A stretch of 64,000 nucleotides of DNA, taken from Celeribacter sp. (lineage in GTDB: Bacteria > Pseudomonadota > Alphaproteobacteria > Rhodobacterales > Rhodobacteraceae). Each line of letters begins with the position of its first letter. Within the stretch, counting starts at the first letter, position 1. The notes under the pieces are model-generated. The model was not told where the DNA came from. It searched no databases and was given only the letters and a program-made list of their open reading frames with translations. The position numbers and the translations under genes were made by a program. Below, piece after piece: positions 23,180 through 27,490 of this stretch. The stretch is taken from assembly GCF_048259695.1 (NCBI RefSeq), contig NZ_JBLXHL010000003.1, forward strand, positions 358,304 to 422,303. The letters run 5' to 3'.

Positions 23180-23527
23180 CTACCCGTCCTGCCATTTGCG
23201 CAAGAGATCCTCGACCAGAATCCCGTTGATGGTCATGCCTTCCAACGAACAATTCTCGATTGTTACATCGGCGAGATTGGCATTGGTTATGGTCGCCCCC
23301 GTGTAATTGGCGTTTTCAATCCGCGCATTGGTGAGGTTGGCGTTGTGGACAGACATATTGGCGATATTACAATCGTCCAACACAACCCCCGAGAGATTGC
23401 AATTGATGACAAGCGTATGTGTGAGGTTGCACCGCGTAAACTTGGACCCTTCATGTGACGCATCTTCAAGCACCAGGGGACGCAGTTTTTTTCGCGGCGG
23501 GTGATCCTTGTTCGCGTTATCTATCAT
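23180..23527 (-). CDS. Pentapeptide repeat protein
   Basis: Repeats CNLTH/CNLSG/CNIAN/ANLTN/ANYTG/ANLAD, ending SLEGMTINGILVEDLL; ATG overlaps the bdhA TGA. Confidence 0.8.
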   Translation of the reverse strand: MIDNANKDHPPRKKLRPLVLEDASHEGSKFTRCNLTHTLVINCNLSGVVLDDCNIANMSVHNANLTNARIENANYTGATITNANLADVTIENCSLEGMTINGILVEDLLRKWQDG

Positions 23528-24297
23528 AGTGCGGTCCATCCGCCATCGACGGAAATCGTGGTGCCGGTGATCTGTGCGGCCGCGTCGGAGGCGAGGAACA
23601 GACATGTCCCGCCAAGCTGTTCGACGGTGGCGAATTCCTTGGACGGTTGGCGCTCCAGCAAGACCTCGCGAATAACCGTTTCGCGGTCCATATCGTATTT
23701 CTTCATCGTGTCGGGGATTTGTTTTTCGACCAAGGGGGTCAAAACATACCCGGGACAAATGGCATTGGCGGTGATCGGCTCGCGGGCGGTTTCGAGGGCG
23801 GTGACTTTGGTCAGGCCGACAACGCCGTGTTTGGCCGCGACATAGGCCGATTTATAGGGCGACGCGGTCAGCCCGTGGGCCGATGCGATGTTGATCACCC
23901 GCCCCCAACCCGCTTTGCGCATCATCGGCAGGGCCGCCGCGGTGGTGTGAAACGCCGAGGACATGTTGATGGCGATAATCGCGTCCCATTTCTCGACCGG
24001 AAACTCGTCGATGCCCGCGACATACTGGATGCCGGCATTGTTCACGAGGATATCACAGACCCCCGCCGTCTCGACAAGGGCGCGACACTGGTCTGCTTTG
24101 GACATATCGGCCTGAATGTAGCGGGCCGTCACACCGAATTCATCCGCGATCTCTTTGGCGATGGCATGATCGTCGTCTGTATCGGTGAAGGAATTGAGCA
24201 CCACATTGAGGCCCGCCTTTGCGAGTTCTCGTGCCACGCCCAGACCGATGCCGGAGTTTGACCCTGTGATGATTGCTGTTTTCCCTTTGACGTCCAT
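23524..24297 (-). CDS. bdhA: 3-hydroxybutyrate dehydrogenase
   Basis: TGSNSGIG, NNAGIQY, SAHGLTASPYKSAYVAAKHG, ICPGYVLTPLVEKQI. Confidence 0.93.
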   Translation of the reverse strand: MDVKGKTAIITGSNSGIGLGVARELAKAGLNVVLNSFTDTDDDHAIAKEIADEFGVTARYIQADMSKADQCRALVETAGVCDILVNNAGIQYVAGIDEFPVEKWDAIIAINMSSAFHTTAAALPMMRKAGWGRVINIASAHGLTASPYKSAYVAAKHGVVGLTKVTALETAREPITANAICPGYVLTPLVEKQIPDTMKKYDMDRETVIREVLLERQPSKEFATVEQLGGTCLFLASDAAAQITGTTISVDGGWTAL

Positions 24298-24494: not shown

Positions 24495-24570
24495 AAAAAA
24501 AACGCCGGCACAAGGCCGGCGCAAAGTTATTGAGGCAGGTTTCATACAGGCAAGAAACCTATCGAGCAGT
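24495..24570 (-). ncRNA. Candidate trans-acting sRNA, ~76 nt
   Basis: Promoter upstream, 7-bp hairpin AGGTTTC/GAAACCT, terminator CGCCGGC-cttgt-GCCGGCG + T8; no ORF. Confidence 0.65.
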
Positions 24571-24576
24571 GCCCCC

Positions 24577-24605
24577 TTTATACGCGGTTCACCACCGCAC
24601 TCCAA
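24577..24605 (-). promoter_or_regulatory. Promoter of the sRNA candidate
   Basis: TTGGAG (24605-24600)-N17-TATAAA (24582-24577). Confidence 0.55.
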
Positions 24606-24675
24606 GCTAAAAGTTTGAATTCACCCGCAGGCGGCCTTAGGCTAAGCCTCAACAAAGAAACGGGACGGAGGCATT

Positions 24676-26499
24676 GTGTCCGAGATGGCAACGAACATTT
24701 TCCACGGGCTGCGCATATCTTGCGCCGCATTGGCACTGATTGCGGGCGCGCCCTTTGCGCAGGCCGAACCGATGCATGGCATAGCTATGTATGGCAGCCC
24801 CGAGCTACCACAAGATTTCGTGTCCCTCCCCTACGCCAATGCCGATGCCCCCAAGGGCGGCAAAATCGTCACCGGCGAAGGTGGCACATTCGACAGTTTG
24901 AACCCGTTTATCCAGAAAGGCAGCTCACCGTGGCAGTTGCGCTACATGTTGGCGGAAAGTTTGATGGGCCGCGCCTATAGCGAACCTTTCACGCTGTATT
25001 GCCTGTTGTGCGAGACAATCGACACCGATGAGGACCGCACATGGGCCGAATTTACCCTGCGCCCCGAGGCCCGATTCTCTGATGGTGCGCCGGTGACGGT
25101 CGAGGATGTGATCTGGTCCTACGAAAAACTCGGGACGGAAGGCCACGGCCGCTACGCCTCGATGTGGGAACAGATTGCAAGCATCGAGAAAACCGGCGAA
25201 CGCTCGGTCAAATTCACCTTTAACACCGACAACCGCGAACTGGCGTTGTTGGTCGGGATGCGCCCGATCCTGCAAAAGGCCCAATGGGAGGGCAAGGATT
25301 TCACCAAATCGGGCTTTGACCAGATCCCGATCGGTTCCGCCCCTTACCAGATCACCGATTTCGACGCGGGCAGCTATGTCGAGCTGACGCGCAACCCCGA
25401 GTACTGGGGCAAAGACGTGCCGTTCATGCGCGGTCAGGCCAACCTTGATACCATCCGGTGGGAATTTTTTGCCGATGCCTCCCTCGTGATCGAGGCGTTC
25501 AAAGCGGGCGAATTGAACAGCAACCGCGAGTTCAACGTGCAGACATGGGACGACCAATACAATTTCCCCGCCGTCGAACGGGGCGATGTGATCAAATCCG
25601 TCATCCCGCATCAACGCCCCTCCGGCATGACCGGCTTTGTGATGAACACCCGCCTCCCCCAGTTTTCCGACTGGCGCGTCCGTCAGGCCCTCATCGAGAC
25701 GTTCAATTTCGAATATATCAACGAGGTTCAAACCGGATCGCAACAATCGCGCATCACCTCGTATTACTCCAACTCGGTACTGGGGATGCAAAGTGGTCCC
25801 GCACAGGGGCGCGTGGCGCAATTGCTTGCGCCCTACGCCGATGACCTGCCGCCCGATACGCTTGAGGGGTACACCTTTCCCGCCACCTCCGGCGCGCTCA
25901 ACGACCGCCAATCGACCCGCCGCGCCTTGGCCCTGTTCAAGGACGCAGGCTATACCATCCAGGACGGTGTGATGAAAAATGCCGATGGTGTGCCCTATAC
26001 GTTCGAGATTTTATTGCAGTCCGGTGATGATGAAAATCAATCTATTATAGATACTTACACGCAGTCCCTCATCCAGATTGGCATCACGCCAACCATCACC
26101 GTGGTTGACCGTCCGCAATACCGCGAGCGCAGCGATACCTTTGATTTCGGCATGACCACCATCCGCCGCGGCCTGTCGCTATCCCCCGGCAACGAGCAAA
26201 AGGCCTATTGGGGGTCCGAGGCCGCCGATACCGAAGGGTCGCGCAACCTGATGGGCGTCAAATCCGCCGCTGTTGACGGGTTGATCGACACCATGCTGTC
26301 CTCCGGCAGCAAGGACGATTTCGTCGCCGCCACCCGCGCCCTCGACCGCGTGTTGACCGCCGGTCGCTATGTCATCCCGATCTATCAATGGAACATCTCG
26401 CGCGTGGCCCACGCCAAGCAGCTGACCTATCCCGAAACCTTGCCGATCTACGGCGACTGGATCGGTTGGCAGCCGGATGTGTGGTATTGGACAGAATGA
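24676..26499 (+). CDS. Family 5 extracellular solute-binding protein (YejA-like)
   Basis: HGIAMYG.P, NADAPKGG, TFDSLNPF, LRPEARFSDG, IGSAPY, SPGNEQ. Confidence 0.88.
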   Translation: MSEMATNIFHGLRISCAALALIAGAPFAQAEPMHGIAMYGSPELPQDFVSLPYANADAPKGGKIVTGEGGTFDSLNPFIQKGSSPWQLRYMLAESLMGRAYSEPFTLYCLLCETIDTDEDRTWAEFTLRPEARFSDGAPVTVEDVIWSYEKLGTEGHGRYASMWEQIASIEKTGERSVKFTFNTDNRELALLVGMRPILQKAQWEGKDFTKSGFDQIPIGSAPYQITDFDAGSYVELTRNPEYWGKDVPFMRGQANLDTIRWEFFADASLVIEAFKAGELNSNREFNVQTWDDQYNFPAVERGDVIKSVIPHQRPSGMTGFVMNTRLPQFSDWRVRQALIETFNFEYINEVQTGSQQSRITSYYSNSVLGMQSGPAQGRVAQLLAPYADDLPPDTLEGYTFPATSGALNDRQSTRRALALFKDAGYTIQDGVMKNADGVPYTFEILLQSGDDENQSIIDTYTQSLIQIGITPTITVVDRPQYRERSDTFDFGMTTIRRGLSLSPGNEQKAYWGSEAADTEGSRNLMGVKSAAVDGLIDTMLSSGSKDDFVAATRALDRVLTAGRYVIPIYQWNISRVAHAKQLTYPETLPIYGDWIGWQPDVWYWTE

Positions 26500-26670: not shown

Positions 26671-27339
26671 CTATCCCAGTGACGTCACCCACAGGATGGT
26701 CGCATCCTCGGGCGAGATCGAAATCACGTTGTGACCCATAGAGGCGTCATAGTAGGCGCTGTCGCCGCGCCGCATGTCAATCGGCTCATAAAACTCTGTT
26801 ATCAAACAGATTTGCCCCGTCAGAACATAGAGGAATTCCTCACCGTCATGGCGCACCCACCCGTCGAATTCCTCGAAACTGCGGGCGCGGATGGTGGCGC
26901 GGTAGGGCAGCATCTGTTTCTTGGTCAGCGCCCCCGCAAGCATTTCATGCTCATAGGTGGCGGTGGCATGGGCCGCGCCCTCGCCGGCCTTGGTGGTGGC
27001 CAACCGACCCGAAATCTGTTGCTTGCGCGGCGGCGTAAACAATTGCGGCACTGAGATCTCCAACCCGATGGCAAGCTTTTTGAGCGCCTCATAGGTCGGG
27101 GACATTTGACCGTTTTCAATCTTGGACAGGGTTGATCGCGCCAGACCCGCATGACCGGCGGCCTGTTCCAACGTCCACCCGTGTGATTTACGCAACTCGC
27201 GGACCCGCGCCCCGAGGTCGAGCGGATGCGCGTCATCGCCCGCCTCAAGCGCCCGCGCCAAACGGATCAGGCTCGGGTTGCCTGTGGATGCGGCCCCATC
27301 GGGGCGCTCCGGAGAGTTGTGATCGGGATCATCTGTCAT
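26671..27339 (-). CDS. XRE-family HTH regulator with cupin domain
   Basis: LGARVRELRK..WTLEQAA..GLARSTLSKIENGQMSPT; cupin HDGEEFLYVL, GDSAYYD. Confidence 0.9.
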   Translation of the reverse strand: MTDDPDHNSPERPDGAASTGNPSLIRLARALEAGDDAHPLDLGARVRELRKSHGWTLEQAAGHAGLARSTLSKIENGQMSPTYEALKKLAIGLEISVPQLFTPPRKQQISGRLATTKAGEGAAHATATYEHEMLAGALTKKQMLPYRATIRARSFEEFDGWVRHDGEEFLYVLTGQICLITEFYEPIDMRRGDSAYYDASMGHNVISISPEDATILWVTSLG

Positions 27340-27364: not shown

Positions 27365-27406
27365 AAAAAGAAAACCCCCGGATGCTGTTTACCGCATCTT
27401 CGGGGG
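27365..27406 (-). terminator. Terminator about 85-125 nt downstream of the 74-aa ORF
   Basis: CCCCCG(aa)GATGC-loop-GCATCCGGGGG followed by TTTTCTTTTT on the minus strand. Confidence 0.8.
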
Positions 27407-27490
27407 CTCTTTGGGGCAGACGAGGTATGGGGGGATACACTGCTCGTGAGGTCTTGCCTACCCTGTATCTGGTTTGCGCGGGGCGCGCGG

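Follow-up and report, generated by a model that had tools for sequence, protein, structure and literature searches.

The intergenic DNA between a bdhA-like dehydrogenase gene and a divergent YejA-like gene in Celeribacter sp. raises the question of whether it contains an RNA gene of its own and, if so, how that RNA might act. The region lies in a stretch of 64,000 nucleotides that was analysed as a whole (the window), and coordinates refer to this window unless a contig or another genome is named. An earlier note, made from the letters alone, had proposed an independent, unannotated sRNA gene of about 76 nt at this site. The proposal is borne out by matches to a covariance model in every sampled genome of the order, by a terminator that covaries and by a homologue in RNA-seq data. 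The locus is a stand-alone gene with its own sigma-70-type promoter and a strong intrinsic terminator, and it is composed of the following parts:

24495-24570, (-) strand: sRNA transcript of 76 nt, ACUGCUCGAUAGGUUUCUUGCCUGUAUGAAACCUGCCUCAAUAACUUUGCGCCGGCCUUGUGCCGGCGUUUUUUUU, defined by sequence, fold and a score of 102.7 bits with covariance model R1
24577-24605, (-) strand: sRNA promoter, with the -35 box TTGGAG at 24605-24600, a 17-nt spacer and the -10 box TATAAA at 24582-24577
24561-24570, (-) strand: unpaired 5' end ACUGCUCGAU, candidate seed 1 (MFE and centroid folds)
24536-24560, (-) strand: hairpin 1, with the 7-bp stem AGGUUUC/GAAACCU and the loop UUGCCUGUAU, candidate seed 2
24523-24535, (-) strand: unpaired linker GCCUCAAUAACUU(U), in which the C/U-rich, anti-SD-like CCUGCCUC is followed by an A/U-rich tract; candidate seed 3 and putative Hfq site
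24495-24522, (-) strand: Rho-independent terminator, a GC stem-loop and a U8 tail (terminator scan and covariation)

The predicted start is A24570, 6 nt 3' of the -10 box. Hairpin 1 reads AGGTTTC/GAAACCT in the DNA, where RNA nt 11-17 pair with nt 29-35, and encloses the loop TTGCCTGTAT. The linker between hairpin 1 and the terminator is GCCTCAATAACTTT in the DNA and unpaired in its RNA form (GCCUCAAUAACUUU, CCUGCCUCAAUAAC), and the terminator consists of GCGCCGGCC-TTGT-GCCGGCG followed by T8 at 24502-24495. The 76-nt RNA folds into exactly two hairpins with a free energy of -24.4 kcal/mol (z = -3.64 compared with shuffled sequences). The promoter spacer has a weak GC...GC dyad. The promoter, the start at A24570, the 7-bp stem with its loop, the A/U-rich linker, the GC terminator and the T8 tail had all been described in the earlier note; every one of them is present on the (-) strand and the fold agrees. 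The note had also stated that there is no open reading frame, and this stands as well. The 38-codon TTG frame has no Pfam match. A small-peptide gene was rejected as well, since the internal AUG lacks an SD and opens a frame of only 7 codons in most relatives, and a second family of the order does not have this AUG.

The features of the single sequence are not by themselves beyond chance, because the promoter was not called and the terminator count is at the level of shuffled sequences. An E. coli-type scan does not call the promoter since its -35 box, TTGGAG, matches the E. coli-type consensus TTGACA at only three of six positions, and two terminators were found in the 2-kb region compared with 2.2 expected from shuffles, i.e. 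no excess. The reality of the gene is settled by conservation, because the promoter boxes, the start and 41 nt of the RNA are kept throughout the order.

A 121-nt query from the locus found a match in all 24 same-genus genomes at about 90% identity and also in all six genomes of a second Rhodobacterales family. When aligned, the transcript and the two promoter boxes form conserved islands inside otherwise divergent intergenic DNA. More than 120 loci were found in a pattern scan with one genome per species, nearly all of them labelled Rhodobacterales, Rhodobacteraceae, Paracoccaceae or Roseobacteraceae, and the genera include Leisingera, Ruegeria, Sulfitobacter, Roseobacter, Yoonia, Planktomarina, Tabrizicola, Gemmobacter, Rhodovulum, Rhodobacter, Jannaschia and Celeribacter. 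The promoter consensus TCAAACTTTTAGCTTGGA-N17-(C/G)(G/T)TATAAAG is kept over about 120 species. Covariance model R1, which is built on 44 diverse copies of the sRNA, matches 301 of 301 sampled genomes of the order and 112 of 112 genera, nearly always with one copy per genome; main-family matches score 97-106 bits, and those of the second family have E-values from 1e-12 to 1e-17. A sample of 300 genomes from the whole class gave no match above 30 bits outside the order, and nothing credible was found there. Homologues beyond the order were rejected, as the best of the weak matches proved to be terminators or coding sequence and lacked both the characteristic neighbours and synteny. The sRNA family is universal in, and restricted to, the Rhodobacterales genomes examined.

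Of 151 genera, represented by one genome each, 143 contain an exact match to the 22-mer of nt 1-22. For the other segments, loci were retrieved without constraining the bases being counted: nt 1-10 (ACUGCUCGAU) are identical in 118 of 120 loci, the loop of hairpin 1 (UUGCCUGUAU) in 116 of 120 loci and nt 23-41 in 22 of 23 genera. Within the linker GCCUCAA is invariant and the remainder is variable, and nt 1-41 as a whole are essentially invariant across the order. The stem of hairpin 1 is unchanged in all 44 aligned sequences with zero covariation, which shows that sequence, and not only shape, is under selection. The terminator helix varies freely in sequence yet remains paired, with compensatory double changes at six of its seven stem pairs, a level of covariation attained in 0 of 500 shuffles. 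A terminator that covaries while the part upstream stays fixed is the pattern expected of an RNA in which, judged from the alignment, the 5' two-thirds would work through sequence.

Transcription of a homologue has been reported in Paracoccus denitrificans PD1222, where 'sRNA 46' was described as an intergenic 22-nt read cluster between Pden_0931 and Pden_0932 (Gaimster et al. 2016, PMC5107571). It is located on chromosome 1 at 912922-912944 (+) with the sequence CUGCUCGAUAGGUUUCUUGCCU (PMC5107571, Supplementary Table 1), has peak read counts of 2088, 915 and 487 in three growth conditions and is followed 24 nt further on by a predicted terminator at 912968-912988 (PMC5107571). It is outside the 16 sRNAs validated by RT-PCR and was given no name, function or conservation analysis (PMC5107571; Front Microbiol 7:1806). 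All 22 positions of CUGCUCGAUAGGUUUCUUGCCU agree with nt 2-23 of the Celeribacter sRNA; the homologue is therefore transcribed, with a 5' end that deviates from the predicted +1 by no more than 1 nt. 'sRNA 46' is almost certainly the orthologue of the Celeribacter sRNA. Both are intergenic with a terminator just 3', and reads of the former were obtained in all three conditions, but 'sRNA 46' was called as a 22-nt fragment only.

The sequence string of the sRNA was not found in the main texts of the literature searched, and the R. pomeroyi sRNA supplement gave no match. In a survey of R. capsulatus, sRNA00470 is homologous to the validated R. sphaeroides RSs1386, and RSs1386 and UpsM are the only two named R. 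sphaeroides sRNAs from which an sRNA annotation was inferred in that survey (PMC5546546). An sRNA that is invariant throughout the order is expected to surface in this way, and the identity of RSs1386/sRNA00470 with the present RNA is a lead only.

The surroundings of the sRNA gene include the following features:

24676-26499, (+) strand: gene for a YejA-like, apparently orphan periplasmic solute-binding protein (SBP_bac_5, Pfam E = 8.9e-58)
24606-24660, (+) strand: predicted back-to-back promoter of the YejA-like gene, with the -35 box TTGAAT at 24614-24619 and the -10-like TAGGCT about 17 nt downstream (alignments)
23524-24297, (-) strand: bdhA-like short-chain dehydrogenase gene (Pfam adh_short), 198 nt 3' of the U tail of the sRNA

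The promoter region of the YejA-like gene and the -35 region of the sRNA have the conserved core AAAAGTTTGAA in common, and the pattern CCAAGCTAAAAGTTTGAA-N16/17-TAnnnT is conserved in alignments on the YejA-like side. Main-family loci have a conserved block of 19 bp, TCCAAGCTAAAAGTTTGAA, that contains the sRNA -35 box on one strand and a TTGAAA-type -35 box on the other; the latter is followed 16-17 nt on by a TAnnnT -10 box for the binding-protein gene. The sRNA and the YejA-like gene are thus probably transcribed from back-to-back promoters. Nearly every locus of sufficient length, those of the second family included, has the YejA-like gene divergently beside the sRNA; gene and hairpin are 115-250 nt apart in the main family and 190-520 nt apart in the second. 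The gene after it encodes a convergent XRE-HTH/cupin regulator, syntenic in many genera.

On the other side, a patatin gene follows downstream of the sRNA on the same strand as the bdhA-like gene. The earlier note had placed the sRNA just upstream of, and co-oriented with, the bdhA/patatin operon and had looked to synteny and sequence conservation for confirmation. The conservation proves to be order-wide, and position and orientation of bdhA and patatin are as stated, but the more constant neighbour is the divergent YejA-like gene. A bdhA, patatin or 330-aa ORF is co-oriented 3' of the sRNA in most, not all, main-family genomes. The distance from the sRNA to bdhA varies between 127 nt and more than 2 kb with other genes inserted, and bdhA, patatin and the 330-aa ORF are not downstream in the second family. 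Any link of the sRNA to mobilisation of PHB (polyhydroxybutyrate, a carbon-storage polymer) or to peptide uptake is suggested by neighbourhood only. As a separate observation, the BdhA protein is 86% identical to that of C. halophilus, the nearest named relative among the loci.

There is very little doubt that the RNA is a functional sRNA. The explanation that we prefer, and consider probable, is an independent gene of about 76 nt for a trans-acting regulatory RNA that likely pairs with several RNAs with the assistance of Hfq; that Hfq-assisted base pairing is its main mode of action is rather likely. The locus has several attributes of the Hfq-dependent class, namely an own promoter, a terminator with a U-tail of at least 6, conserved unpaired seeds and an encoded Hfq (PF17209 match of 115.6 bits at G000 C6:145325-145513 in the same genome). 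The sigma-70-type promoter, back-to-back with that of the YejA-like gene, would drive the sRNA and the intrinsic terminator would end the transcript. Three invariant unpaired stretches would then be exposed, i.e. the 5' end ACUGCUCGAU, the loop UUGCCUGUAU and the linker CCUGCCUCAAU, and the A/U-rich tract with the GC hairpin and the U8 tail would constitute the usual Hfq-binding module. The CCUGCCUC stretch might occlude Shine-Dalgarno regions of mRNAs and the 5' end might act as a second seed, with Hfq assisting the pairing with several mRNAs or other RNA partners. In this scheme we infer the Hfq dependence, base pairing as the mechanism and the choice of the seed stretches.

Possible targets were screened in the own genome, at about 3,180 gene starts from a crude gene call, with a pairing threshold of <= -16 kcal/mol and the reversed sequence as control. 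The linker (nt 32-48) pairs strongly with 40 start regions compared with 8 for the reversed control, the hairpin loop with 27 compared with 16 and the 5' end with 6 compared with 9. The top candidates overlapping the SD are PBP2, GNAT, a heparinase-like protein, an amidase, the CpaC secretin, glycerate kinase, a FadJ-like enzyme and a LysE exporter, and they have no common theme. No enrichment for binding-protein targets was shown. A conserved mRNA target was not found among the yejA, bdhA and patatin leaders and PBP2. PBP2 (mrdA), the best candidate in the single genome, is not kept in 30 genera and its residual signal derives from the overlapping mreD coding sequence. The yejA mRNA has only matches of 6-10 bp at shifting positions, with a mean energy about 0.3 SD better than shuffles. 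The loop complementarity in bdhA corresponds to the Gly-Lys-Thr codons GGC-AAG-AC (GGCAAGAC) of the SDR motif, and the patatin start region gave no signal. A genome-wide search for long perfect complements to the sRNA rendered only 12-13-mers at chance level, and a duplex scan of the genome with the whole RNA was dominated by GC-rich noise, the energies being uninformative at 60% GC.

One element complementary to the sRNA is present in the window:

27365-27468, (-) strand: AUACAGGGUAGGCAAGACCUCACGAGCAGU at 27439-27468, followed by a C-run and a terminator of its own

The element can pair with nt 1-8, 11-16 and 19-24 of the sRNA. It is located 3 kb from the sRNA, in the 3' UTR of a 74-codon ORF and a short distance upstream of the gene for the XRE-cupin regulator. 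All 12 aligned same-genus genomes retain the blocks CGAGCAGU and GGCAxxACCU as well as the C-run and the terminator. The duplex between sRNA and element has an energy of -35.2 kcal/mol, which is near the 5th percentile genome-wide and not exceptional. At the syntenic site in other genera the element is absent, and a pattern search outside the genus mostly re-found the antisense strand of the sRNA gene. The element is a candidate for a genus-specific target or sponge, and it offers the strongest hint that pairing may involve the 5' end together with the hairpin's 5' side.

Given the unusual 41-nt invariance, the main rival to a pairing sRNA is a protein-binding or decoy RNA, in which the invariant 41 nt would be a recognition surface and the RNA would titrate or guide a conserved protein, e.g. 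an RNA-binding regulator or an RNase. Such a role would account for the span of the invariance, for a hairpin 1 without a single change in 44 sequences, next to a freely varying terminator helix, and for the fact that a conserved mRNA target was not found. On the other hand, the hairpin loop as read from its sequence contains no GGA motif of the CsrA type, and the free 5' end, the C/U-rich linker, the A/U tract and the U-tail make up the layout of a pairing sRNA. Complementarity to the linker is moreover enriched in start regions, and a complementary RNA element is conserved in the genus. We consider a purely protein-directed role unlikely; the invariance of 41 nt and the non-covarying stem exceed typical seed conservation, and a protein partner could act instead of or besides pairing. 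The conservation could also be thought to concern the DNA alone, the site being an operator or enhancer of the YejA-like gene, for instance, and the RNA having no function, in that the sRNA gene abuts the yejA promoter and the inverted repeat AGGTTTC-N10-GAAACCT could bind a protein. This is hardly credible. A correctly spaced, conserved promoter upstream and a terminator downstream flank the conserved part, and the covariation of the terminator places the constraint at the RNA level; the RNA is also detected in P. denitrificans, and in the second family the element is still conserved although it is 400-500 nt away from yejA.

The co-orientation upstream of bdhA, patatin or the 330-aa ORF in most main-family genomes would suit a cis-acting leader or attenuator of the bdhA-patatin cluster, with a start at 24570 and conditional readthrough into bdhA. 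This is improbable in view of the long and variable distance to bdhA with its inserted genes and of the second family, where none of the cluster is downstream. The terminator drifts while the upstream part is fixed, so that no conserved alternative pairing is possible between the terminator stem and the 5' part, and there is therefore no conserved antiterminator pairing. The terminator is also strong (7 GC pairs and U8), the bdhA leaders in other genera bear conserved palindromes of their own, and the signal in P. denitrificans is a short RNA. 

A highly diverged member of the MmgR/alpha-r8 (suhB) or SorX families with a role in PHB control would be similar in size and layout and would fit the position near the PHB-mobilisation gene bdhA, considering that MmgR and SuhB mutants over-accumulate PHB (PMC8401924; bioRxiv 10.64898/2025.12.09.693200). 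The earlier note had argued against the MmgR family, and the Rfam search that it had named as a check agrees: with the sRNA as query no family reached its threshold (MmgR/suhB, SorX, SorY, RyhB and others). The match with the lowest E-value is SorX (RF02784), at 21.7 bits below the gathering score of 46.6 bits; MmgR/alpha-r8/suhB (RF00519) scores 21.1 bits with E = 0.14 compared with a gathering score of 41, and SorY (RF02651) 14.3 bits compared with 111. The SorX and suhB scores are thus about half the gathering thresholds. The sRNA is only the eighth-ranked suhB match in its own genome and contains neither the UUUCCUCCCU motif of the MmgR family nor CCUCCCU; the anti-SD motif (U)UUCCUCCCU is missing and CCUGCCUCAA stands in its place. 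A member of the suhB family would be expected in several alphaproteobacterial orders; the covariance model of the present sRNA finds nothing credible in other orders, with at most 30 bits outside Rhodobacterales and no synteny. A separate, SorY-like RNA at C4:390140-390225 of the same genome carries CCUCCCUGUUAGACUU / CCUCCCUGUU and scores 60.9 bits with SorY, 38.4 with SorX and 32.8 with suhB, which makes it the best suhB match of the genome. It holds a CCUCCC-type motif; the CCUCCC-type sRNA of this genome is therefore encoded elsewhere, and the present RNA constitutes a family of its own. Membership in the MmgR or SorX families is accordingly very improbable.

To our knowledge, very few sRNAs are conserved beyond one genus. 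An sRNA that is found in every examined genome of an order with 41 invariant nt likely controls something central. To the Rhodobacterales belong the Roseobacter group, abundant in surface ocean waters, and such laboratory models as Cereibacter sphaeroides, Rhodobacter capsulatus, Paracoccus denitrificans, Dinoroseobacter shibae and Ruegeria pomeroyi, and the sRNA is accessible in several genetically tractable species. The family is missing from Rfam, so the sRNA is unannotated in thousands of genomes; the alignment and the covariance model would permit its annotation. The genus-conserved complementary element is a ready partner for the question of sponge or target. More speculatively, the sRNA may be a 'core' riboregulator of Rhodobacterales, a hub with multiple seeds and perhaps a protein platform, whose regulon might couple mobilisation of stored carbon, as the bdhA-patatin neighbourhood suggests, with uptake of peptides or solutes, as the YejA-like neighbour suggests, and which the lineage-specific 3' UTR element 3 kb away might buffer as a sponge in Celeribacter; we regard this wider picture as tentative.

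Compared with known systems, the RNA is an uncharacterised sRNA family of order-wide distribution that is absent from Rfam. The MmgR/alpha-r8/SuhB RNAs resemble it with their length of about 77 nt, a 5' hairpin, a C/U-rich unpaired anti-SD stretch and a terminator, and MmgR has been described as Hfq-dependent. The Celeribacter sRNA gene also adjoins a gene for PHB mobilisation (bdhA), but its neighbour is a YejA-like gene, while the Rfam suhB family is presumably named after a suhB neighbour gene. SorX and SorY of Rhodobacter (Cereibacter) sphaeroides likewise belong to Rhodobacterales and have a similar size and the two-hairpin layout, but their core ACCUCCCUGUUGGAC is missing from the Celeribacter sRNA. 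SorX is processed from an mRNA 3' UTR, whereas the Celeribacter sRNA has its own conserved promoter. AbcR1 and AbcR2 (alpha-r15, Rhizobiales) have no sequence relationship to the sRNA and give no Rfam match with it, and the leader of the neighbouring YejA-like gene contains no convincing conserved pairing site. AbcR1 and AbcR2 are Hfq-dependent and use C/U-rich unpaired motifs to block the RBS of many mRNAs for transporter binding proteins (see PMC8844928). The CCUGCCUC stretch and a binding-protein gene as the constant neighbour make them a plausible functional analogue of the Celeribacter sRNA.

The promoters of the sRNA and of the divergent YejA-like gene, which encodes a solute-binding protein, appear to be arranged back to back at window 24600-24660. 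They have a conserved core in common, TCCAAGCTAAAAGTTTGAA, at which two divergent -35 boxes are found about 8 bp apart. The spacer of the sRNA promoter also contains a weak conserved GC...GC dyad immediately upstream of the -10 box, with a mean fold energy of -2.2 kcal/mol compared with -1.65 kcal/mol in shuffled sequences. A candidate controller of both promoters is encoded on the far side of the YejA-like gene:

Window 26671-27339, minus strand: XRE-HTH and cupin regulator gene, convergent with the YejA-like gene.

Many genera show synteny between this regulator gene and the sRNA locus. Because the regulator gene is the convergent neighbour of the YejA-like gene, the binding protein appears to be an orphan, with no permease or ATPase genes next to it.

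Downstream of the sRNA, the leaders of bdhA in several genera contain conserved palindromes of the TGCAGCA type, for example TGCAGCAACTACAATGCTGCA. These are located between the sRNA terminator and bdhA (loci L047, L053, L124, L138 and others among the sRNA-gene copies), and they suggest that bdhA has an operator and a promoter of its own. The palindrome may be a PhaR-type site.

Two sequences within the window are complementary to parts of the sRNA:

Window 27365-27468, minus strand: genus-conserved element within the 3' UTR of a 74-codon ORF.
Window ~5393 (G000, the window's own genome, C3:363696), minus strand: GNAT acetyltransferase gene of 132 aa, with AUGAGGCAGGG at -16..-6.

Three blocks in the 5' 24 nt of the sRNA are complementary to the first of these, in which ..AGGGCAGGCAAxACCUCACGAGCAGU is followed by a C-run, CUGCCCC and a strong terminator of its own. 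The element was not found when looked for in other genera; it may be a 3'UTR-derived sponge of the sRNA, or else its target. In the GNAT gene, AUGAGGCAGGG forms a 9-bp match with the sRNA linker CCUGCCUCA over the ribosome-binding site (-18.3 kcal/mol), a pairing predicted from a single genome only.

Two copies of the sRNA are unusual. The one in an uncultured Rhodobacter sp. (L134, OZ241336.1) has about 30 extra nt from ACTGCTCGAG to the hairpin (ACTGCTCGAGCGTCGGACGGCGCACTGCCGTATGGCGCTAAGGTTTC...), and is the only one among the copies seen with an insertion inside the invariant part. The other is found with a bdhA fragment on a 604 bp contig labelled as a Cellvibrionaceae MAG (L126, JAOXRT010000096.1). 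Its terminator sequence is that of the window's sRNA, and the contig is probably from Rhodobacterales, mis-binned in a gammaproteobacterial MAG.

Outside the window, the same genome has two other sRNA-like genes:

C4:390140-390225, minus strand: L151, with CCUCCCUGUUAGACUU and a terminator.
C3:300567-300644, minus strand: L152, with a score against suhB.

L151 scores 60.9 bits for SorY, 38.4 for SorX and 32.8 for suhB/MmgR, each below the respective gathering score, and L152 scores 29.8 bits for suhB. Both are probably diverged sRNAs of the SorX/SorY/MmgR type that are overlooked at Rfam thresholds.
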